Virus record (IMG/VR): IMGVR_UViG_3300005613_000035
Coordinates: 1-64,000 of that record
Length of the DNA: 64,000 bases
Reading direction: 5' to 3' (one strand)
From: a virus
Both the position numbers and the translations under genes were made by a program. Below are positions 24,502 to 59,641 of this stretch, one piece after another (position 1 is the first letter of the stretch; every line of letters starts with the position of its first letter). The notes under the pieces are model-generated. The model was not told the DNA's origin. It did no database searches and worked only from the letters and a program-made list of their open reading frames with translations.

Positions 24502-24530
24502 TTGACTCTTTGTAAGTAGTGTGTTATACT
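24502..24530 (+). promoter_or_regulatory. Sigma70-type promoter for the endonuclease gene
   Basis: TTGACT-17 bp-TATACT with extended -10 TG. Confidence 0.75.
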
Positions 24531-24533
24531 GTA

Positions 24534-24567
24534 ATAATATGGGGGGAAATTATTCCTCCCATATTAT
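24534..24567 (+). promoter_or_regulatory. 15-bp hairpin abutting the RBS
   Basis: ATAATATGGGGGGAA/TTCCTCCCATATTAT (one G-U pair); GGAG at 24571, ATG at 24582. Confidence 0.7.
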
Positions 24568-24581
24568 ACAGGAGATTAAAT

Positions 24582-26774
24582 ATGAAGCATACAATTGAGT
24601 TCATCAGGTCAGAATTTGAGAAGGAAGGGTATCAGCTTTTATCTACAGAATATATAGGAGCACATGATAAGTTAGATTGTATTTGTCCGGTAGGGCATAA
24701 GATTAAGATAACTTGGCACTCGTTTAGAAAGGGGCACAGATGTCCTGAATGTTTTGGTACTAAGAGGTACGATATAGATTTTGTTAGGCAAGAGTTTGAA
24801 AAAGAAGGATACAAGCTTTTAACGAAAGGGTATAAAAACAACAAGCAAAAGATTGAATACATTTGTTCTAATGGTCATAGGAACGAAACTACATTTCATG
24901 CTTGGTTATTAGGAACAAGATGTCCTGACTGTTATAATTTAGTTAGGGGAGAAAGTCAAAAGTTTGATATTGAATATATACGAGATGCTTTTAAGAAGGA
25001 AGGATATCAGTTATTAACTAAAAAGTATATTGGGTGCAAACAGAAGCTCAATTATATTTGTCCTAATGGCCATAGAAATTCAATGATTTGGGGTAGCTTT
25101 CAACAAGGTCATAGATGTCCTGATTGCTATAATAATACTCGTAAGGGTTTTACAAAAATGGTTACAGAAAGTATTCGAGAAGAATTTAATAAAGAAGGAT
25201 ATACCTTATTAACTAAAGAATACAGGAATACAAAACAGAAATTAAGATATATTTGTCCAAATGGCCATGAAAGAACTATTACATATGATAGTTGGCGAGC
25301 AGGATCAAGATGTAAGCTATGTGTAAATAAAAATGTAAGACATACCATTGAATATGTTAGAGCTGGATTTGAAGAAGCCGGCTATATATTGTTAACTAAA
25401 GAGTATAAGAACTGCTCACAAAAGTTGGAGTATATATGTACTGAAGGTCATACTAATAGTATGTCTTGGAATGCTTGGAGAAAAGGAGCGAGATGTCCTG
25501 ACTGTTATAATTTAGTCCGGCAATATGCAGGAAGACTTACAATAGACTTTGTAAAACAAGAATTTGAGAATGAGGGATACACACTTTTATCTACAGAATA
25601 TAGTGGAGCGCATGATAAATTAAAGGTTTTGTGTCCTGAAGGTCATGAGATAGAACTAAGATATTATTCTTTTAAACAGGGTAATAGATGCCCAATATGT
25701 TTTAATGAAGTTAGAGGAGCATCTCAAAGATTAAATATTGACTTTATAAAACAGGAGTTTAATAAAGATGGCTATCAGCTATTAACAAAGGTATATAAAA
25801 ATAATACAACAAAGTTAAAGTATATTTGTCCTAAAGGACATTATGGAAATATAACTTGGAATGCTTGGAAGAGTGGCTGTAGATGTAATAAATGTTGTAT
25901 TGTTCATTCAAAAGCTGAGAATGAAATATTTGAGTTTGTTAAAGCATATTTTCCAGATGCAATACAGGGCGATAGAACAATAATAAGTCCATTTGAACTT
26001 GATATAGTAATATCTTCAAAGCTGTACGCCATAGAATATTGTGGTTTATTTTGGCATTCTGAGTCTCAGCGTAAAGACAAGAGGTATCATCTGAACAAGT
26101 TAGAATTATGTAATAATAAGGGTTATAATTTAATTACAATTTTTGAGGATGAATGGCTACACAAAAGAAATATAGTAGAGAGTAGGCTTAAAGCTATATT
26201 AGATGTACAGGATGCTGTACGAATATATGCACGAAAATGTACAATAAAAGAAGTTAGTGCTACTGTTAAGAACGAGTTTTTAAATAAATACCATATACAA
26301 GGTGCTGACAGCTCAAGCATAAAACTTGGTGCATATTATAACAATGAGTTAGTATCCATAATGACATTCAGTAAGCCATCATTATCTAAGGGATATAAAA
26401 ACTATGTTGAAGGTACGTATGAGCTAAGCAGGTTTTGTTCTCATCCAGAATATACAGTATTAGGTATTGCGGGTAAGTTGTTAAAATATTTTACCAGAAA
26501 CTATAACTATACAGAAATATACAGTTACAGTGATAGGAGATGGTCTATAGGTAATCTGTATAACAAGTTAGGGTTTACATTTATACATAGTACAAGTCCA
26601 AATTATTGGTATGTTGTGGGAGATACAAGAAAGCACAGGTTTTTATTCAGGAAATCTGAGCTTTATAAAAAGTTAGAAGTGTTTGATCCAGAATTATCAG
26701 AGTCACAAAATATGGCTAATGCTGGCATCAACAGAATATTTGATTGTGGTAATCATAAATGGAGTTATACATAA
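24582..26774 (+). CDS. Free-standing homing-endonuclease-like protein: 7 zinc-ribbon repeats + Vsr/DUF559-like nuclease + Hef/GNAT-like domain
   Basis: 7x C-x-x-GH...G.RCxxC; ELDI...IEYCG.FWH...IFEDEW; IYARKC...ELSRFC...YSDRRWS...IFDCG. Confidence 0.8.
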   Translation: MKHTIEFIRSEFEKEGYQLLSTEYIGAHDKLDCICPVGHKIKITWHSFRKGHRCPECFGTKRYDIDFVRQEFEKEGYKLLTKGYKNNKQKIEYICSNGHRNETTFHAWLLGTRCPDCYNLVRGESQKFDIEYIRDAFKKEGYQLLTKKYIGCKQKLNYICPNGHRNSMIWGSFQQGHRCPDCYNNTRKGFTKMVTESIREEFNKEGYTLLTKEYRNTKQKLRYICPNGHERTITYDSWRAGSRCKLCVNKNVRHTIEYVRAGFEEAGYILLTKEYKNCSQKLEYICTEGHTNSMSWNAWRKGARCPDCYNLVRQYAGRLTIDFVKQEFENEGYTLLSTEYSGAHDKLKVLCPEGHEIELRYYSFKQGNRCPICFNEVRGASQRLNIDFIKQEFNKDGYQLLTKVYKNNTTKLKYICPKGHYGNITWNAWKSGCRCNKCCIVHSKAENEIFEFVKAYFPDAIQGDRTIISPFELDIVISSKLYAIEYCGLFWHSESQRKDKRYHLNKLELCNNKGYNLITIFEDEWLHKRNIVESRLKAILDVQDAVRIYARKCTIKEVSATVKNEFLNKYHIQGADSSSIKLGAYYNNELVSIMTFSKPSLSKGYKNYVEGTYELSRFCSHPEYTVLGIAGKLLKYFTRNYNYTEIYSYSDRRWSIGNLYNKLGFTFIHSTSPNYWYVVGDTRKHRFLFRKSELYKKLEVFDPELSESQNMANAGINRIFDCGNHKWSYT

Positions 26775-46779: not shown

Positions 46780-47832
46780 ATGAAAAGAATTATAGTAGTA
46801 CTAAGTGTTTTTGTAATGTCAGCTAGTTGTTATGCTTTAAATTGGGATTATACAGAAAATAAAACGAAGTTCTGTAGTCACGGTACAAACATTAAACATT
46901 TTGGATTCATTAAAAGCGGAAGACCTCCAGTTTCTATAGAAAATGTATCTAGGTATACTGATTGGGTAGATGTTGGTGATAATAGTATTACAGATCCTGT
47001 TGAAAGAGCACAGTCTGATCTTAATACAATTATTGAAGCTTCAAGTTATAATTTAAAATCTGTAGTGCAGGTGGATGAAATCTTCTTTGAGTACCTTTTT
47101 AATGGAGATACTTTTGAAGGTGTTGTGTTACGCAGTAATTATATTGATAGATGGCTTGTGTACTCAGATATTATTGCACCAAATATAGATGATATACTCA
47201 TGTTTCTTACGTTAGATGAACCATATTGGGCAGGGTGTGGGGCAGCAGGAAGTCCAGTACAGGAAACAACTATGAAGGAATGGCTTGAAAGTGTTGCAGC
47301 ATGTATAAAAACTACATTTCCAACTGTTAAGTTAGGACAAGTGTATGCTTATGTATCTATGCTAGAAAATTATTCGTCAAATCCAACATCTCCTAAAAGT
47401 GAAACATTCTCTATACCAGAAGGATATGACTATGTTGGATTTGATATGTTTTATAGTTCATTTAGAGCTAATGGCTATTATGAAGTAGAAAAATATGCTG
47501 GATTTATATCTGATTTTACAACATTATATACTTATTTTAAGAATGTAGTTAGTGGAGCACACAAGTTAATAATCATACCCGGATCTTTTTACCATGATTT
47601 TTTTGAAGTATCAGAAGCAGAGCTACTTCAGGATGCATATTTCTTTATGGATCTGGCAAGAAATGATCCACAAATTGAAGTACTTGCACCATTCTTATAT
47701 AAAACTTGTTATAACATGGTAGGTATTGAAGATTTATACTTTGTAGATACTTATTGGAAACATATTGGAAAGCAGATTTTACATTGCATTCCAAGTCCTA
47801 TATATATGATACTAATGTACTTATCCGATTAA
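46780..47832 (+). CDS. Secreted GH-like protein, paralog of the central domain of 43434..46394
   Basis: Signal peptide; shared DEPY, LGQVYAY, IP.GYDYVGF, PGSFY and APFLY motifs. Confidence 0.75.
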   Translation: MKRIIVVLSVFVMSASCYALNWDYTENKTKFCSHGTNIKHFGFIKSGRPPVSIENVSRYTDWVDVGDNSITDPVERAQSDLNTIIEASSYNLKSVVQVDEIFFEYLFNGDTFEGVVLRSNYIDRWLVYSDIIAPNIDDILMFLTLDEPYWAGCGAAGSPVQETTMKEWLESVAACIKTTFPTVKLGQVYAYVSMLENYSSNPTSPKSETFSIPEGYDYVGFDMFYSSFRANGYYEVEKYAGFISDFTTLYTYFKNVVSGAHKLIIIPGSFYHDFFEVSEAELLQDAYFFMDLARNDPQIEVLAPFLYKTCYNMVGIEDLYFVDTYWKHIGKQILHCIPSPIYMILMYLSD

Positions 47833-47866
47833 TGACAAACAAAATAAATAGCTGGAGGAATATATA

Positions 47867-48610
47867 ATGATTTATTCAACAGGGTCTATAACTATTAAGA
47901 TAGGATCAGCATCTGTAAAAGGTGATACAGGTACTGAAGATTTCGTAACATACGCAGCAGCCGGTTATTTAATTAAACCTACTAATGAATCTACCTTTTA
48001 TGAAATAGGAGCTATCAATAGTGCTACAAGATTAACACTTACATCAAGGTATTCTAATTCTTTGTATAGAACTGCAAGAAGTGAGAATGTTGCTACTATG
48101 ACAGCTACACAATTAAGTAGTGGCACGCTAGATTACAATCCTGTATTACAAAACTATGTTACTATAAACGCTTCTGTCGAGAAATTTTCAGATAATGGTG
48201 CTGGAATACTTGTTGGAAACGCATCAGGAACTGGTACTGTTGATTATGATACAGGCGTGTGGACTATTACTTTAGGTACTACGTTAGCTACTGAAATTGT
48301 AGTATCCGCCTCATATTTATCAGGGGATACTAGAACTGCTGTTGGCTACCAAATAGTCACAGATTACACACCAAATAATAACTTTCCTGAAATGGCTTTG
48401 AGTGACGCTAACCTTCCTCATATTTATACTAAAGGTGTTAGACTTATTGATAATTTAATAAATGAGGATAGAGTAAGAATTGCTGAAGTTACTGCAACAC
48501 CTACAGAAGAATTAGGGTATGGTAAACTATTTGTAAAAGATAATAAATTATACTATCAGGCGTACTCCGCAAATGCTACTATTTATTCTATTGATATGAC
48601 AGCTATTTAG
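47867..48610 (+). CDS. Tail fiber/virion accessory protein
   Basis: YSTGSITI...VKG fiber-type N-terminus; DNGAGIL.G..GTVDY.TG motif. Confidence 0.65.
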   Translation: MIYSTGSITIKIGSASVKGDTGTEDFVTYAAAGYLIKPTNESTFYEIGAINSATRLTLTSRYSNSLYRTARSENVATMTATQLSSGTLDYNPVLQNYVTINASVEKFSDNGAGILVGNASGTGTVDYDTGVWTITLGTTLATEIVVSASYLSGDTRTAVGYQIVTDYTPNNNFPEMALSDANLPHIYTKGVRLIDNLINEDRVRIAEVTATPTEELGYGKLFVKDNKLYYQAYSANATIYSIDMTAI

Positions 48611-48613
48611 ATG

Positions 48614-48648
48614 ATCTGAGTAGCTCCTAATAGAGCTACTCAGATTTT
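48614..48648 (+). terminator. Intrinsic terminator at convergence of the two transcription units
   Basis: Perfect 13-bp stem ATCTGAGTAGCTC/GAGCTACTCAGAT, 6-nt loop, T-run. Confidence 0.8.
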
Positions 48649-48656
48649 GGTGTGTG

Positions 48657-48947
48657 CTATTCTGTGTTAAATTTTCTATATAATAATGGATTAGTGTCAA
48701 CAAATAAATACGGAAATTTTTTCCTCGCTTCTTCATATAAATATTTGATAATAATGCAACCTTCTTTTGTAGGCTTAAATTCTGGGTGCGTAATGTATAT
48801 TATAAACCCGCGAAGCTCCAATACATTATAAGCACCCATAACATTACAATTATTAAAACGTATCATATTACTAATTTTTATATCTTTAAACTTTGTGTTT
48901 TCATCTACAATAAATTCGTAGGGTATTACTATACCTATCATCCTCAT
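48657..48947 (-). CDS. Hypothetical protein
   Basis: Last ORF of the minus-strand unit. Confidence 0.55.
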   Translation of the reverse strand: MRMIGIVIPYEFIVDENTKFKDIKISNMIRFNNCNVMGAYNVLELRGFIIYITHPEFKPTKEGCIIIKYLYEEARKKFPYLFVDTNPLLYRKFNTE

Positions 48948-49182
48948 TTTTCATATCCTCTTTTTTTCTGTTTCCATTTTCCATTCTTCAAACCCTTCTC
49001 TAATTATCCTCATTTCTTTATGCCTATCTCTATCATACTCCTTCCTGTTTTTCATTACTTTAGTATTTGATGCTTTAGGTATTCGGATTGGTATTTTATT
49101 CCTAATATTTCTACTCTTGCCCATCCTACTCTCCTTATATTGTTTATTATTTTCATTTGAATGCGGCTATCACCTTTACCTC

Positions 49183-49217
49183 ACACATAAATTTAATCTG
49201 TAAATAATTTTATCTTT
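49183..49217 (-). repeat. Second copy of HD-gene 3' segment (33/35 identical to 49834-49868)
   Basis: Both copies encode KDKIIYRLNLCV; the two differences are synonymous. Confidence 0.85.
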
Positions 49218-49231
49218 TCTCAAACTGGTTT

Positions 49232-49401
49232 GTTATGCCCCTCACCACGACTTATCAGCTTAGTACAAAACAGAATTTGCGTAGCCTCTGCCCTACGCTC
49301 GTACCCATGCAAGAGGGCGATAATCCTCCTGTTCGGAATGAAATCTTGCATATACAAATCATTCCGTTACCTCGGCATTGCGTGTTTCTTAGGGGCATAA
49401 C
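49232..49401. ncRNA. Candidate structured RNA closed by 11-bp inverted repeat
   Basis: GTTATGCCCCT/AGGGGCATAAC, internal 8-bp and 6-bp hairpins, loop complementarities, elevated GC. Confidence 0.5.
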
Positions 49402-49425
49402 TATTCACCAAATACCTTTTCTATA

Positions 49426-49728
49426 TTAGTTTTCAGGTCCAGGATTGAAAGCTACATCTTCGCATGTTCCATACGTTCCTAAAAATAATGTGCCGTAATC
49501 AATCTCTAAAAGAAGACCTGCTGATATAAGATAAGATAAAAATTGATATTCCCTAAAAGCATATGCTCTCTTTTGGTCTTGATGTTTTTCTAAATACTTA
49601 GATAGTTTTTTCATTGGATAAAAATCTTGCAATGCAACAAAAAAACCGATTACGGTATAATCTGAGTATTCCCCTTTTTCCACAGAAATTAATTTTCCTG
49701 CTTTGACCATTTTTTCTTTATTTACCAT
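49426..49728 (-). CDS. Hypothetical protein
   Basis: ORF with GAGGGG RBS; GEYSDY motif. Confidence 0.65.
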   Translation of the reverse strand: MVNKEKMVKAGKLISVEKGEYSDYTVIGFFVALQDFYPMKKLSKYLEKHQDQKRAYAFREYQFLSYLISAGLLLEIDYGTLFLGTYGTCEDVAFNPGPEN

Positions 49729-49796
49729 TTAAAATACCCCTCTTTTTATGCTTTCCTGTATTTGGTTTACTTTGTTAGCCCATTTATTATTTTCCT

Positions 49797-50297
49797 TTAA
49801 TTGTTGAGACTATGACTTTCAAAACGTTTTTCTACACATAAGTTTAATCTATAAATAATTTTATCTTTGTTATATTCAACTTTTTGCTCTGGGTTTCTTC
49901 CCATCTTGTCAAAACGGGCTAACTGAACTAACTCTGATAACCAAGGATGCTCTACTAATGTTTTCACCTTTGAAAGTTTTCTCATATTGCCTAAAAGGTA
50001 ATACCAAATTCTCATATGATTCTCAATCAACCATAATGATTTCACACTGAGATAAGGTTTTAACATATTGACACCTATCTTTTCGTGCCCCAAACTATTT
50101 TCTATCTTACCAACATCATGCATCATAGCAGCAAGTATCAAATCAGTATCTATAGTTTCTCTAAAGGCACAATATAAAGTTTGAAGAGAATGGGTGAATA
50201 CGTCCCCTTCTGGGTGGTAATCTCCTTTTTGTTTGACTCCTTGGCATTGCTCAAGAATTGTAAATAAAGGGTTCATGAAATCATTAGTAAAAATCAC
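49797..50297 (-). CDS. HD-domain phosphohydrolase
   Basis: YHPEGDVFTH, MMHDVGK, GHE, NHMR, D.MGR. Confidence 0.88.
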   Translation of the reverse strand: MIFTNDFMNPLFTILEQCQGVKQKGDYHPEGDVFTHSLQTLYCAFRETIDTDLILAAMMHDVGKIENSLGHEKIGVNMLKPYLSVKSLWLIENHMRIWYYLLGNMRKLSKVKTLVEHPWLSELVQLARFDKMGRNPEQKVEYNKDKIIYRLNLCVEKRFESHSLNN

Positions 50298-50605
50298 AAT
50301 ACATAATCCTCAATAGTTTTGATAACGAATTGATCCCAAAATCTTCTGTCAATTTTAGGTGGAAGTTTGCTGATTTTAGACAATTCTTCTACCTCACTCG
50401 TGTTCTTAGCAATACTACCTTTTTTAGTTTGAATATTGTGACTTTTTGGTACTCGATTTAAAAGTATTTGTTCTTTCGTTGGAAGAAAAATGCCTTTAAA
50501 ATCCTGATCTGAATTTTCATCATCAGTCCCATATAGATGTGACCCAAATCTCATATTGACTATTATATTTAATTTTCTTGTTTGTGTTAGATTGGTTATC
50601 TTCAT
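50294..50605 (-). pseudogene. Pol-beta-type nucleotidyltransferase with large internal in-frame deletion
   Basis: FGSHLYGT...SDQDFKGIF N-terminus joined directly to S.LP..ID..F C-terminus; only 103 aa. Confidence 0.6.
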
Positions 50606-50637
50606 TTATCTACCTTTTAATATTTTTTGAGTTCATG

Positions 50638-50970
50638 TTATTTCCTTTTGATGCTTATTTCTGGAATAATGTTTACAGAAAATTTAACAGCTTTGCAAAA
50701 TAGAGGCCAAAAGACTTTTGCTGTAAAATTAATAATAATAAATTTAGCTAACCAAACTATTATGAAAATAGGCCAAAATAGGTAAACGGCTAAAACACTA
50801 AAAAATATATCAACGTAATCAAGAAATACATGCTTATTGCCTGTCAAAATAAATTCAAATGTTCTTGGAGCTACATGTTTTAAAACAATACTTCCCATAA
50901 CAACTGATAAAATTCCAAATGTTATCCAGAAAAATACAGATCCTAATACACCAAACATAAAACTAAACAT
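50638..50970 (-). CDS. Membrane protein
   Basis: Two or three hydrophobic helices. Confidence 0.7.
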   Translation of the reverse strand: MFSFMFGVLGSVFFWITFGILSVVMGSIVLKHVAPRTFEFILTGNKHVFLDYVDIFFSVLAVYLFWPIFIIVWLAKFIIINFTAKVFWPLFCKAVKFSVNIIPEISIKRK

Positions 50971-51058
50971 GATTTACCCCCTTTTCCTTTTGTTTTAGAT
51001 TCTTTATACTGTTAATAGTTCTTGTTGCTCAACTTTTATGGTACATAATGCTCGGCAT

Positions 51059-53902
51059 CTATATCTCACATGCTCCTCCAATACAAGCAAATTCTTGTGA
51101 CCCAGTTGTTGTGTCATTTTTTTCATACTCTATTAATTTATCAAAATCAATATTTATGTTTTTAGATAATTCTTCATAAGTTTCTTCGTCTATCTCTTCA
51201 AACGGAGCTAACTGATAAATTCCAGTATCATACGGTAAAAAGGATAAGCCACATACTATATTCCAATTTTTATAAATCCAAGATGCAACCTCTAACCATT
51301 CATCTTTTTTTACATAAATAGTGCAGCTAGGATTATGTTCACACCAGTATTCCTTTAACATTTTCCAGTATTCTAATTGTTGTAATGCAGTTACAGAGTC
51401 TTTCATTAATGATTCTTTTGGTGATTTCATATAAAAATCAAATACGAAAGTTGTCGCACTATCTATTGTCTCTCCTATTTCTGGGGCATATTTAATATTC
51501 TGATCTATCAGAAATTTTGATATTGGATCAAACGAATTTAATCTTATTCTTCTTATGTAATATGGGGCATATCTTGGATGTATTCCAGAAGAGCAACCTA
51601 CTAATTGTGAAACGGTTCCACTAGGCTTTACACATGTTATTGCTGCTGGCATTTTTATACCTAAGATTCCAGACCATCTTTTTGCAGTTTCTATAGCTTC
51701 CTCTTTCATTTCATACAACCACTTTTTAGAAGTTTTATTTACAGTATTAAGTATTGGATGATCAGCAAGTCCTGTTAAACTAACACCTAACAGTCTTTCA
51801 TCCTTACAGTTATCCTTATATCTTTTACTTATAAAATTAAAATCTGTTAAAGTTGATTGTATACAACCTAAGATTGTAGCATATTTGACTTTTTCTTTTA
51901 TATCTTCCTTTCCATCTTTTGGACGTAGTATAACTTCAGATAGATTACAAAATTGTTTAGGTCTTAATATTATTTCCCCGCAGTTATGTGCTATAACTCC
52001 ATTAACAACTCCCCAATGAGTTTTAGATTCTGAAAAATCAAAAACTTCCTCTTCTCTTAAATACTTTACTGCTCTAACAGTAATACTTTTTGATAAGATT
52101 GCTTTTCTTAGCTTTTCTTGCTTATATTTTTGTGCAAAGCTAATTAACTCTGAGAATTTTACAATGGATTCAAAATTACTAACATTTACATCATAACTCT
52201 GTTTGCTATTATAAACACCATTATGATGTTTTACATCATGTGATTTATTTGTTGTAATATAACTTTTTATTTCCCTATCATTTAATTCTTTAACAAGCTG
52301 ATTCGCTAAAACTTTACTAGTGGTTTTATAGGCAATTCTTCCAACACTTTCAATAACTGATCCATTAGCTGAAAACAAACCAGATAAAAAATCATCAGTA
52401 ATTTTTATATTGCTTGGCAACCTTTTATCTTCATAAGATAAAGGTTCTAATTTATATTCTAAAGCAATTTTTTTAGCTTCTCTATTGTAATTTCTGCCAT
52501 ATTCTATACCAAGTAGTTTTGCTACATCTAAATCATTTTTACCTATGTGAACTTCCATTCCTTTATGTATTTTAGAGTTTAATCTTTTTACACTACCATC
52601 CCCAAGAATAAATCCAGCATAAAAGTCGTTTCTGTTAAAGGTATTTTTAACATTAAAAAAAGGCATTAATCGCTTTCCCTTTAAATCTTTGGCTAAACAC
52701 GAAGAACCATCATTAAGTTTAAATTCGTGGTTTTCTGTACATTTAATGCTCTCCTTTTTTCCCGTGAAAACAATTTTGTACACGGGTTTTATACCAGTAC
52801 TCCAGATTCTTCCCTTTGAAATTTCACCCTTTTCATTTATTAAATTGACATTCTCTAACTTTGATAATTCATCAAATCTTTTATAACCAGTTTCAGTTAG
52901 TAATTGCATATCTTTAGTAAAACAAGGGTTGCTCCCAAATTTATGATCCGGGTCTCTTCTACCATTTTTAGCTACTGTATATTTTACTGCTGTCCTATTA
53001 AATATTCCCCTCTCCCCACATTTTGATTCTATAAGTTTCTTCCACTCATCTATAAACTTTATTATATCTGGTTTTATATTGTATACAGCAGAATTATTAG
53101 CTAATCTTCTTTGAGTATTATGCCTCCAAAATTCCCCTACTTTAGCTCTTGACATACTATCATCAGATAAATCAGATAGACTGACGCAAGCAGAGCGTCT
53201 GACCCCACCAGATACTATAGATGCAGCTATATGACATATTATATCATGACATTCAATAGGATATAGCTGTCTACCAACAGCTCCCATTACTATTTTTTTT
53301 GTATTCTCTAATAAAGAAATTAAAGGAGCTGGGCCACTAGCCCTACCCCCAAACGTTTTTAATATAGATCCTTCTAGTCTTAGCTTTGATACATCATACT
53401 TAAAATTTTTTCCTTTATATAAGTTTTTTAAGTATCTATTATAACCATCTGCCCATCCTTTTTTTGAATCTGAAAAGATAATAACATCATCACAATCTTC
53501 TATTTTGGTAGGAAGTTTTGGTAGCTTACATATTTCATCTTGTTCTACAGAAAATCCTACACCAGTTCCACACATTAGTATATATAGTATTTCTGAAAAT
53601 ACTTTGATGTTATCAACAGATACAAAGCAACAATTATAAGCTGCTATGTTGTCTTTATCTAAAGCTTTTCCTGCTGTCCAAAATGCTCTCATAGATGGTG
53701 CTATCTTAACATCCATAATAAATTCACAAGCTTTTTCAAATTCTTCTTTTGCTTTTTTATCTTTTATTCTTTTAATTAAAAAACTTTTATATCTCTCTAC
53801 AGATTCTTTCCAGTCCTCTCTTCTCAACACATTCTGAAGCCATCTTGCATAAAATATCTTATATATTAATTTTTGATACAACTTATTATTATCCACAAAC
53901 AC
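51059..53902 (-). CDS. nrdJ: Class II (AdoCbl-dependent) ribonucleotide reductase with intein
   Basis: PSMR, YNC, GTGVGFS, SGGVRRSA, NP/CGEI, FCNLSE, TCVKPSGTVS, C-terminal CIGGACEI. Confidence 0.93.
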   Translation of the reverse strand: MFVDNNKLYQKLIYKIFYARWLQNVLRREDWKESVERYKSFLIKRIKDKKAKEEFEKACEFIMDVKIAPSMRAFWTAGKALDKDNIAAYNCCFVSVDNIKVFSEILYILMCGTGVGFSVEQDEICKLPKLPTKIEDCDDVIIFSDSKKGWADGYNRYLKNLYKGKNFKYDVSKLRLEGSILKTFGGRASGPAPLISLLENTKKIVMGAVGRQLYPIECHDIICHIAASIVSGGVRRSACVSLSDLSDDSMSRAKVGEFWRHNTQRRLANNSAVYNIKPDIIKFIDEWKKLIESKCGERGIFNRTAVKYTVAKNGRRDPDHKFGSNPCFTKDMQLLTETGYKRFDELSKLENVNLINEKGEISKGRIWSTGIKPVYKIVFTGKKESIKCTENHEFKLNDGSSCLAKDLKGKRLMPFFNVKNTFNRNDFYAGFILGDGSVKRLNSKIHKGMEVHIGKNDLDVAKLLGIEYGRNYNREAKKIALEYKLEPLSYEDKRLPSNIKITDDFLSGLFSANGSVIESVGRIAYKTTSKVLANQLVKELNDREIKSYITTNKSHDVKHHNGVYNSKQSYDVNVSNFESIVKFSELISFAQKYKQEKLRKAILSKSITVRAVKYLREEEVFDFSESKTHWGVVNGVIAHNCGEIILRPKQFCNLSEVILRPKDGKEDIKEKVKYATILGCIQSTLTDFNFISKRYKDNCKDERLLGVSLTGLADHPILNTVNKTSKKWLYEMKEEAIETAKRWSGILGIKMPAAITCVKPSGTVSQLVGCSSGIHPRYAPYYIRRIRLNSFDPISKFLIDQNIKYAPEIGETIDSATTFVFDFYMKSPKESLMKDSVTALQQLEYWKMLKEYWCEHNPSCTIYVKKDEWLEVASWIYKNWNIVCGLSFLPYDTGIYQLAPFEEIDEETYEELSKNINIDFDKLIEYEKNDTTTGSQEFACIGGACEI
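51983..52924 (-). mobile_element. Intein (314 aa) with LAGLIDADG endonuclease
   Basis: Starts CFTKDMQLLT, ends NGVIAHN followed by Cys+1; AGFILGDGS and SGLFSANGS blocks. Confidence 0.93.
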
Positions 53903-53910
53903 GCCTCCTT

Positions 53911-54816
53911 TTAATAGCTATAACCATATCTTCTATACATAATAGCTCTGTACCAACTTGTCCACCAAGCTCTATCTTTCTGGGCACGTGCATTACAGCT
54001 ATAACATCCTGTTATCAAGTTTGATGGATGGCAATTTTTTTTGTCATTATCTATATGCATTATACATAATGGTAAATGGTAACTTGTTTTCCAGCAGTTA
54101 GGATTAAGACATTTGTGTCCGTCTCTTATTTTTATATCTTCTTTGTACTCCTTGTCTGTCCAAACTTCACAATAAGGTTCCCAAGACGCGCCATTTTTCC
54201 AATTTGGGTGGTCCTCTCCTATTTTAAAAACCCCTCCATTTTTCTCTAATGAACATAGTGGACATCTATGTTTTTGTTTAAAACTATCCCAGCACATCAT
54301 GAATTTATGCCCTTTGTCACATTCAAACTTTAATTTTTCTCCAGAATTTATATATTCTTTTGATAGTAATTTATATCCTATTTCTTCAGCATTCCTCTTT
54401 ATATGATCTATAGTTAATCTTATATTTCCAGCACATTTTGCACATCTCTGCCCTTGCTGGAAATGTCCCCAAGTCATAAGAAACTTATGCCCTTTATCAC
54501 ACTTGAATTTTAGTTTAGTTGAATTATTTGTGTATTTTTCTGATAAGCATACATAACCATCAGCAACTTCTCTTGTTTTCTGCTTTACATAGTCTATTGT
54601 CAATCTTTGAGAATTGCCTCGTGTTTTACTATAACATTTATAGCATCTTTCCCCCCTCTGAAAATTATTCCAGGTAACTTTATATTGGTGACCTTTCATA
54701 CACTCGACTTTTAACTTTGTACTAGAATTCTTATACTCTTTTGATAATAATTTATATCCTTCCTTTTCTATTTTATTTTTTATATAATCATATGTTAAAC
54801 GTTTAGTACAGCTCAT
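53911..54816 (-). CDS. HNH homing endonuclease with 3 zinc-ribbon repeats
   Basis: 3x C.KGH...RCxxC; HPNWK.G; RDGHKC..C...HID..K.N...NLIT.C..CN. Confidence 0.85.
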   Translation of the reverse strand: MSCTKRLTYDYIKNKIEKEGYKLLSKEYKNSSTKLKVECMKGHQYKVTWNNFQRGERCYKCYSKTRGNSQRLTIDYVKQKTREVADGYVCLSEKYTNNSTKLKFKCDKGHKFLMTWGHFQQGQRCAKCAGNIRLTIDHIKRNAEEIGYKLLSKEYINSGEKLKFECDKGHKFMMCWDSFKQKHRCPLCSLEKNGGVFKIGEDHPNWKNGASWEPYCEVWTDKEYKEDIKIRDGHKCLNPNCWKTSYHLPLCIMHIDNDKKNCHPSNLITGCYSCNARAQKDRAWWTSWYRAIMYRRYGYSY

Positions 54817-59268: not shown

Positions 59269-59641
59269 GTGCTTTTAATAGCCTTTTGTATATTTCTAAA
59301 AAGTTATCTAAATCCATTATTATTACAGGGTCAACATGATTCTTCTTGCAGATTAATGCCCAATATCTTCCTGCTTCCTGGTTCAATTTTGCTTGCTTTA
59401 TCCATGTTAATACTGACCATTTTTCCTGATTCTTGCATTCAATATCTAATAGAATTAATTGTTTAGCTTTACCATACAGCTTTATATCACGTCCTGCCTG
59501 CCCCATTTCTCGTGATTCTATCTCCTTATCTTTACCCCAAGAAATACCTGTAAGTTCTGATAATTTTTTACATACAAGTTTTTGAAGGTTACGCCCCTTT
59601 GCTTTCCTGCTTTTAATTGATATACTTTTCTTTTTAGCCAT
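59258..59641 (-). CDS. Holliday junction resolvase-like PD-(D/E)xK nuclease
   Basis: KAKGRNLQ, MGQAGRDI, IECKNQE. Confidence 0.82.
   Translation of the reverse strand: MAKKKSISIKSRKAKGRNLQKLVCKKLSELTGISWGKDKEIESREMGQAGRDIKLYGKAKQLILLDIECKNQEKWSVLTWIKQAKLNQEAGRYWALICKKNHVDPVIIMDLDNFLEIYKRLLKALDK

Follow-up and report, generated by a model that had tools for sequence, protein, structure and literature searches.

A rare family of pseudoknotted structured RNAs located between genes of unrelated phages

The first 64 kb of the viral record IMGVR_UViG_3300005613_000035 (64,000 nucleotides; hereafter, the window) stem from an AT-rich, uncultured tailed phage, whose 81-kb record is judged 56% complete. 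Between two small genes on the minus strand of the window lies an element with a folded body of 170 nt (49232-49401), which, together with a 13-nt 3' tail, constitutes a module extending from 49219 to 49401. Comparison with related sequences from other contigs makes us highly confident that this element belongs to a real family of structured RNAs: in five distinct versions, the closing helix P1, the hairpins P3 and P5, and a pseudoknot are found at explicit coordinates with differing sequences. As to its function, the reading that we tentatively favor is that of a small phage RNA family, ~150-175 nt in length, whose members act as stable, self-contained RNA genes. The specific mechanism of a free-standing RNA, as it may be envisaged from the sequences, is discussed below and is held with a little less confidence still.

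The element stands out from its surroundings by its G+C content, which is 47% as compared with 31% in the adjoining 1.5 kb to either side, in agreement with an earlier note, made from the sequence alone, that described it as GC-rich. Its minus-strand fold has a calculated energy of -60.0 kcal/mol (z -4.0), which was equaled or surpassed by 0 of 200 shuffled sequences, and the plus-strand fold has an energy of -45.8 kcal/mol (z -3.3), equaled or surpassed by 1 of 200. Folding beats chance on both strands, and more clearly on the minus strand. The four complementary segments that the earlier note listed with coordinates are all present at their positions: a perfect terminal inverted repeat of 11 bp (49232-49242 and 49391-49401), an 8-bp hairpin CGGAATGA/TCATTCCG (49334-49341 and 49359-49366), whose loop TCTTGCAT (49344-49351) is complementary to ATGCAAGA (49307-49314), and a 6-bp hairpin GCGTAG/CTACGC (49279-49284 and 49293-49298). 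The overall architecture that it proposed, i.e., a closed, multi-stem structure with two pseudoknots, survives in part: the closed multi-stem fold and the first pseudoknot are supported by the homologues, and the second pseudoknot, as drawn, is not (see below).

The five versions show pairwise identities of 54-77%. A scan for the terminal repeat with a gap of 130-160 nt retrieved three metagenome contigs, i.e., L008, the element of which is identical to that of the window (49226-49401, minus strand), and L006 and L007, which share one diverged version (1178-1354 in L007). A second scan with the conserved P5 block yielded the viral contig L009 (2450-2620), and a third one, in which the P5 block was used with its stem left free, added L010 (2415-2567) and L011 (2460-2623) together with one chance match, L012. 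The matches to the covariance models are full length in the window, L007, and L009. Exactly one copy was present in each of the four viral records that were searched whole, one of which is a complete genome of 41.5 kb with terminal repeats.

Further searches indicate that the family is rare. When the copies of the window, L011, and L010 were compared by blastn with 50,697 phage records, either nothing or chance matches (E about 7-8) were obtained. The exact terminal-repeat pattern was found 0 times in viral contigs and 0 times in species-representative bacterial and archaeal genomes, this strict pattern being the only one with which bacterial genomes were examined. A degenerate version of the terminal pattern returned only the L009 contig and no new member, and when the P5 pattern was relaxed to allow stems of variable length, 32 loci in viral contigs matched, of which none but the three known ones possess the stem, the rest being chance matches. 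The covariance models detected no further copy in 31 loci with homologues of the nearby HD-domain gene, in 23 chance-match loci, or in 10 other viral records, nine of which were picked for an HD homologue. Relatives of the 100-aa protein encoded upstream of the element in the window (L004 and L005; 50% identity) have no such element adjoining them.

Consistent with the statement in the earlier note that the element could not be matched to a known family, a search of the whole 64-kb window with the 4227 covariance models of Rfam 15 gave 0 matches at the gathering score. At E-values up to 10, two chance matches were obtained in the region 49000-49650, both outside the element, and at E-values up to 1, the four homologous loci gave one weak, unrelated match elsewhere in L010. 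ARAGORN predicted 0 tRNAs or tmRNAs in the window and 0 in L007, L009, L010, and L011.

In the following description of the fold, all coordinates refer to the minus strand of the window, and positions within the element are counted from 49401. The closing helix P1 pairs GUUAUGCCCCU at positions 1-11 (49391-49401) with AGGGGCAUAAC at positions 160-170 (49232-49242) over 11 bp without a mismatch. It comprises 8-11 bp in all five members. In L009, it shows one compensatory change and one change of a U-A to a U-G pair, while its sequences in L010 and L011 are wholly different, and still paired. P2 is a short helix formed by CACG at positions 18-21 (49381-49384) and CGUG at positions 153-156 (49246-49249). 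It is replaced by CCAGG/CCUGG in L007 and by CUGG/CCAG in L009 and, with 4-5 bp, is confined to these three members; it was not found in L010 and L011, where local hairpins take its place.

P3 is a hairpin at 49334-49366, the stem of which is formed by 49366-49359 and 49341-49334. Across the five members, its stem measures 8, 6, 5, 6, and 4 bp with differing sequences. Its loop contains the 5' strand of the pseudoknot, UAUGCAAGA, at positions 50-58 (49344-49352), and the partner strand, UCUUGCAUG, is located at positions 88-96 (49306-49314), a few nucleotides 5' of an invariant UACGAG motif. This pseudoknot, the first of the two in the earlier note, has 7-9 bp in all five members, and it always connects the P3 loop with the strand just 5' of UACGAG. 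Its arms are different in each lineage, i.e., AUGCAAGA/UCUUGCAU, CUGUCAG/CUGACAG, CUGUGAG/CUCACAG, AUCACGU/GCGUGAU, and CGCAUGG/CCAUGCG. A 7-mer complement somewhere upstream arises by chance in 5-11% of shuffles per sequence; the real one is found in each of the five members, invariably in the P3 loop.

The P5 hairpin, GCGUAG-GGCAGAGG-CUACGC (49279-49298), has 6 bp in all five members. Its 8-nt loop GGCAGAGG (49285-49292) is invariant and is flanked by the likewise invariant motifs UACGAG and CAAA, of which the final G of the former is the first base of the P5 stem and the C of the latter closes it. An additional helix of 7 bp, P4, was found on seeking a partner for the conserved region around GGAUUA (49321-49326), a single-stranded motif that reads GG(A/C)UU(A/U) in all five members and lies inside the internal loop between P4 and P5. 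The 7 nt directly 5' of GG(A/C)UU, AACAGGA at positions 69-75 (49327-49333), pair with the 7 nt directly 3' of CAAA, UUCUGUU at positions 127-133 (49269-49275), and the same register is found in all five members: AACAGGA/UUCUGUU in the window, GACAUGA/UCGUGUC in L007, GGCGUGA/UCACACC in L009, UAAUACA/UGUAUUA in L010, and UUGUUGG/CCAACAA in L011. Of the 35 cells of P4, 34 are paired; the 3' arm of L010, which falls outside the alignment A10 introduced below, was counted by script. The internal loop between P4 and P5 has a 5' side of 28 nt, onto which the P3 loop docks, and its 3' side consists of the invariant AAA only.

As MAFFT alignments of the five members placed P3 and the pseudoknot out of register, model-guided alignments (A9 and A10) and explicit coordinates were used to assess covariation. 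The covariance models were built on the copy of the window, with either P3 (R1) or the pseudoknot (R2) as the nested helix. In A10 with P4 added, 96.8% of 155 cells are paired vs. 73.3% in shuffles, and 24 of the 37 base pairs show changes on both sides vs. 9.5 in shuffles, a value reached in 0 of 500. When the 3' partners were slid by 1-3 columns, only 29-49% of the cells were paired, with 4-8 pairs changed on both sides. RNAalifold predicts P1, the pseudoknot helix, and P5 on A10. The two unpaired cells in P1 are explained by Infernal, which shifts P1 of L011 relative to the 8-bp helix placed by coordinates. Both-sided changes amount to 6 of 11 pairs in P1, 2 of 4 in P2, 6 of 9 in the pseudoknot, and 4 of 6 in P5, counts that lean toward the model since A10 was fitted to these very helices; they amount to 6 of 7 in P4. 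The fitting of the alignment is one reservation about the family, and the small sample is another one: only five distinct sequences are available, four of which were detected by means of patterns derived from the element. However, the columns of P4 were treated as unpaired by the alignment model, and their covariation therefore constitutes an unbiased, independent check of the fold.

P4 also settles the fate of the second pseudoknot. The earlier note paired the P5 loop, read as GGCAGAG, with the downstream UUCUGUU. This pairing can be drawn in one of the five members only, i.e., in the window, and the UUCUGUU strand belongs to P4, which is present in all five with compensatory changes. The core is still genuinely knotted, because P4 crosses the pseudoknot helix. 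Several other assignments were considered and rejected. A k-turn beside P5 would require bases that are part of P4. P5 was flagged as a terminator in the copy of the window only, and the other members lack a U-rich tail. A tRNA-like 3' CCA end is suggested by AAACCA after P1 in only three of the five members, a CsrA sponge would be expected to carry more than the one conserved GGA motif, and a hammerhead or pistol core was rejected by eye.

The sense strand of the RNA is the minus strand of the window, as had been proposed. In all five members, the sense strand folds better than the antisense strand, by 5-14 kcal/mol, and the helices contain six G-U pairs on the sense strand as opposed to one C-A mismatch, i.e., a G-U pair on the other strand. 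Furthermore, open reading frames on the same strand tile all five loci, with genes of this orientation on both sides of the element, and L010 contains a sigma-70-like promoter with an 11/12 match and a TG extension, located 435 nt upstream on that strand. Also the G+C content is a shared property, being 6-16 points above that of the flanks in all five.

Could the element be a small protein-coding gene or a functionless, G+C-rich island that arose by chance? Four frames are open for 47-58 codons in the copy of the window. However, none is open across the five members, the longest stop-free stretches vary by frame and member, and the 47-codon minus-strand frame found in the window runs into a stop after 19 codons in L007 and after 10 in L009. 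Moreover, substitutions are compensatory for pairing rather than synonymous, and the element is conserved across unrelated phage contexts. We consider this explanation hardly credible. Instead of a short open reading frame, which the earlier note had named as the alternative object of conservation, the homologues maintain the pairings, and its proposal of a structured, non-coding RNA is thereby upheld.

The boundaries of the module are sharp. The window and L007 become similar precisely with the first base of P1, and their similarity ceases 13 nt past P1, at ...AAACCA(G/A)UU(U)GAG, i.e., with the 3' tail AAACCAGUUUGAG that follows the body (49401 to 49232) in the window. Outside the module, the flanks of the two are unrelated. 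These observations fit a discrete RNA module of ~180 nt that may move between unrelated phages.

The termini of the element also invite a reading at the level of DNA, i.e., as an attC-like site closing an integron cassette or as a miniature inverted-repeat transposable element. The perfect 11-bp terminal inverted repeat, the G+C content that is foreign to the surrounding genome, and the pair of 35-nt direct repeats that enclose the element and the 100-aa gene upstream of it would all agree with such a mobile element. Like attC sites, the element is an imperfect palindrome that closely follows a small gene, and the copy of the window has GTT.../...AAC-like termini, which the earlier note read as integron core and inverse-core boxes of a cassette. 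In attC sites, an R'' box (RYYYAAC) is found at the 5' end and an R' box (GTTRRRY) at the 3' end. The window shows GTTATGC...GCATAAC on both strands, thus in reversed order and with one mismatch per box to the respective consensus. Nor are the termini conserved: they show a compensatory change in L009 and read GACAAUCG/CGAUUGUC in L010 and GGUGGGAG/CUCCCACC in L011, and the invariant parts are the interior UACGAG, GGCAGAGG, and CAAA. Since the termini of L010 and L011 are unrelated and yet paired, they are to be regarded as a covarying RNA helix and not as recombination boxes. The covariation-supported fold, moreover, is branched (P1 to P5) and pseudoknotted, with G-U pairs favoring one strand only, rather than a single long imperfect hairpin. 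With 170 bp, the element is also longer than the usual 57-141 bp of attC sites. It is not arrayed, being present in one copy in each of the four records and absent from the 31 and 23 loci and the 10 viral records mentioned above. A miniature inverted-repeat transposable element is rejected on the same grounds, i.e., the single copy and the covarying termini; no target-site duplication directly abuts the termini, and the 35-nt repeats flank a segment of 616 bp and not the element alone. The integron reading is abandoned, and a mobile element at the DNA level, being largely refuted, is very improbable.

How could the RNA function? The element folds by itself into a compact body: P1 brings both ends together, the P3 loop docks onto the large internal loop between P4 and P5 to form the pseudoknot, the invariant AAA joins P5 to P4, and the invariant, unpaired motifs GG(A/C)UU and UACGAG and the P5 loop GGCAGAGG are put on display. 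According to the reading that we favor, it would behave like a small RNA gene, comparable to the tRNA genes found between phage protein genes, and it would be made within a polycistronic transcript alongside the leftward genes. The closed ends and the knotted core would protect the RNA, and its invariant loops may bind a protein or another partner of the phage or the host. This reading is favored because P1 is long and G+C-rich, the boundaries are sharp, an association with particular genes is lacking, and the fold is intact where no gene starts closely downstream. The latter applies to two of the five lineages, in which the distance from the end of P1 to the next start codon amounts to 107 nt (the window) and 404 nt (L007). 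With its 8-11 G+C-rich base pairs, P1 also seems better suited as a static scaffold than as a switching stem.

Several observations speak against a self-contained RNA gene. Neither a promoter nor a terminator of its own was found, P1 is not followed by a U-tract, and the number of promoter-like sites around the copy of the window, 13, hardly differs from the 11.8 expected in shuffles. Furthermore, a ribosome-binding site and a start codon are located 18-20 nt past P1 in three of the five members, i.e., 20 nt in L009, 20 nt in L010, and 18 nt in L011. In L010 and L011, the sequence from the tail through the Shine-Dalgarno sequence up to the start codon is shared, AAC(C)UUAU(U)AGGAGGAA, even though the downstream genes are unrelated. 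This combination of shared sequence and start spacing fits a cis-acting leader at least equally well.

As such a leader or intercistronic regulator, the folded domain, along with its 3' tail and the ensuing Shine-Dalgarno sequence, would be a portable 5' untranslated module that controls the translation or the stability of the next gene via a small ligand, in the manner of a riboswitch, or via a protein. Given the three spacings and the shared tail with its Shine-Dalgarno sequence, this explanation is nearly as likely as a self-contained RNA; taken by itself, we regard it as possible, though on the doubtful side. It would also account for the situation in L010, where the element ends a leader of ~600 nt that starts at a near-consensus promoter, and for the many invariant nucleotides in junctions and loops, since unpaired, invariant nucleotides in such positions are typical of RNAs that bind ligands or proteins. 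On the other hand, the five downstream genes are mutually unrelated, and in a positional test for riboswitches, two of the five contexts lacked an open reading frame starting within 100 nt; in one of these, the window, a gene remnant lies in between. P1 would be unusually stable for a switching helix, and no conserved pairing that could serve as an alternative terminator or sequester the Shine-Dalgarno sequence was found, ad hoc candidates being discernible by eye in L010 and L011 only. Besides, a distance of 18-20 nt is also the minimum that a Shine-Dalgarno sequence requires in a tightly packed phage genome.

The leader of L010 has features of its own. Its region 1952-2414 starts with a near-consensus sigma-70-type promoter (TTGACA, a 17-nt spacer, and TG-n-TATACT), which is followed by ~430 nt of non-coding sequence. 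This sequence contains three terminator-like hairpins, the last of which ends 10 nt before the element. Two of them carry the motif G(C/U)AGGUGA(A/G)AGCCCUGC, which we take to resemble boxB-type antitermination hairpins. In L007, a terminator-like hairpin, GTGGGCTGCGGCTCAC, followed by TTTT, is found directly upstream of the RNA element (1156-1171), and ~400 nt without a convincing open reading frame extend downstream of it.

Perhaps, the RNA is a ribozyme of a new type, self-cleaving or otherwise catalytic, which would process a polycistronic transcript between two genes. Several classes of small self-cleaving ribozymes in phages are distributed between genes in unrelated contexts, and the element is similarly intergenic in unrelated contexts without a conserved neighbor. 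Its core is compact and pseudoknotted and includes a few dozen invariant nucleotides, and the element begins 4-37 nt past an upstream stop codon in four of the five members (24 nt in the window, 37 nt in L007, 4 nt in L009, and 6 nt in L011; in L010, the long non-coding leader takes the place of a nearby stop codon). However, no Rfam 15 ribozyme was matched at E-values up to 10 in the window or up to 1 in the four homologues, and the topology, when compared by eye with consensus structures, is unlike those of the HDV-like, glmS, twister, pistol, and hammerhead ribozymes. In addition, the sequences give no sign of a cleavage site, and most conserved RNAs with complex folds are not ribozymes. 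A putative ribozyme is therefore quite improbable. Somewhat more credence, although we still deem it unlikely, may be given to the broader possibility that the family is a functional RNA of a novel class, the core of which is catalytic (as in a self-cleaving or processing ribozyme) or senses a ligand, and which phages carry as a portable module between genes; in this case, GG(A/C)UU, UACGAG, GGCAGAGG, and AAA around the docking point of the P3 loop would form the active or binding site.

SAM-I, THF, twister, and glmS are pseudoknotted aptamers or ribozymes in which a hairpin loop docks onto a junction or an internal loop. The element shares with them a P1 helix, a multi-helix junction, a loop-internal-loop pairing, and invariant unpaired purines, including the AAA linker by the pseudoknot, and its size of ~150-175 nt matches that of the larger pseudoknotted riboswitch and ribozyme classes. 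It differs from them in that it has no Rfam 15 match and no conserved downstream gene family and in that its P1 is much more stable. HDV-like ribozymes, which form a nested double pseudoknot, likewise combine compact, crossing helices with a scattered, context-independent distribution, but the element has one pseudoknot helix that crosses P3 and P4, lacks their P1/P1.1/P2 nesting, and is twice as long.

Among phage RNAs, the pRNA of phi29-type phages (RF00044) comes to mind. It is ~170 nt long, has a closing end helix, and requires a loop complementarity for its function; its complementary 4-nt loops pair between molecules, and its gene is located at the genome end of small podoviruses. The element described here is also a phage RNA of similar length that ends in a closing helix and shows loop pairing. 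However, this pairing comprises 7-9 bp between a hairpin loop and an internal loop and is modeled within one molecule, and the phages concerned are larger, with sizes of at least 41-81 kb, at least one of them encoding the tape-measure protein of a long tail. A phi29-type pRNA was rejected, as RF00044 was not matched and the element lies among small accessory genes and genes for nucleotide metabolism.

A comparative-genomics screen of IMG/VR reported 10,006 candidates for structured phage RNAs (Fremin, Bhatt & Kyrpides, 2023; PMC10690425). Like the candidates described there, the element is an intergenic, covarying RNA without an Rfam match, and it occurs in uncultured viral contigs. Some of those candidates are located within 25 bp upstream of genes, as are three of the five members here, and many are terminators or tRNA-like, whereas the element has a six-helix, pseudoknotted fold. 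Those tables of that report that were compared contain none of the three contig numbers and also lack the GGCAGAGG motif; the family may be among its 10,006 unnamed candidates. A full-text literature search retrieved no description of such an RNA. We rate the element as a new family and a new fold within a known kind, i.e., phage-borne structured RNAs, which is rare and occurs once per searched record.

RNAs with complex folds, i.e., those that combine several helices, a pseudoknot, and numerous unpaired but invariant bases, are the pool from which new classes of riboswitches and ribozymes are drawn, and phages have been poorly mined in this respect. With a fold defined to the base-pair level from five sequences, the element is a clean candidate for bench study. 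If it is a stable RNA that acts in trans, it would join the few phage RNAs known to have an effect on the host; should it be a leader, it would represent a portable module for the control of translation. In either case, the potentially misleading integron reading is corrected.

In the window, the structural module on the plus strand extends to 48610 and is succeeded by a minus-strand module from 48657 on. The element is located between a 100-aa gene (49426-49728, minus strand), 24 nt upstream, and a 57-aa gene (48951-49124, minus strand), 107 nt downstream. Farther upstream on this strand, an HD-domain phosphohydrolase, a short nucleotidyltransferase, and a B12-type ribonucleotide reductase with an intein are encoded. 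The five contexts have no protein in common within 2.5 kb; the neighbors are small hypothetical genes and assorted nucleotide-related enzymes.

The surroundings of the RNA in the window appear to have been rearranged. The 3' coding end of the HD-domain gene is duplicated over 35 nt directly after the RNA tail (49183-49217, minus strand), as context rather than as part of the RNA. This duplicate constitutes a direct repeat with 49834-49868 (33 of 35 positions identical), and 0 of 100 shuffles gave any match. Both copies translate to KDKIIYRLNLCV, and the two differences between them are synonymous. The downstream copy is a truncated remnant (…CVR-stop), since HD homologues continue beyond KDKIIYRLNLCV. 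The 616-bp segment between the repeats contains the 100-aa gene and the RNA, and the repeat pair resembles the trace that an insertion or a recombination has left behind.

Comparison with L008 tells a similar story. This contig and the window share 99.9% identity over 2.7 kb (47001-49748) and 94% over 50638-50983. Absent from L008 is the intervening 889-bp segment with the nucleotidyltransferase and HD genes (49749-50637), yet the contig has kept the remnant and the identical RNA. The missing segment extends between the stop codon of a 110-aa gene and a position that precedes the 100-aa gene by 20 nt, and the difference represents a clean gain or loss of a module. In addition, the RlaP-like nucleotidyltransferase gene of the window (50294-50605, minus strand; 103 aa) corresponds to no more than two pieces, one N-terminal and one C-terminal, of the much longer gene in related phages. 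There, the two pieces are separated by ~650-850 bp and precede the HD gene. The gene in the window looks like an internally deleted remnant. A functional tie between the RNA and the nucleotidyltransferase and HD genes was rejected, as L008 has the RNA without both genes and the RNA is absent from the 31 HD-homologue loci and from the 10 whole viral records. The duplicate, the segment missing from L008, and the remnant gene thus place the RNA at a recombination-prone junction, without a functional tie to those genes.

Some further observations concern other parts of the window. A copy of the 11-nt terminal arm with one mismatch, GTTACGCCCCT, is found at 59588-59598, which is at chance level, as 4 of 100 shuffles gave at least three matches. 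The ribonucleotide reductase gene mentioned above (51059-53902, minus strand) encodes a B12-dependent, class II enzyme, and its intein contains a LAGLIDADG homing-endonuclease domain. Two proteins, encoded at 24519-26774 and 53911-54816, consist of repeated zinc-ribbon-like units with CapR homology. The former gives rise to a six-copy family of DNA repeats of roughly 190 nt (D1/D5), and the latter matches a PHROG annotated as HNH endonuclease.

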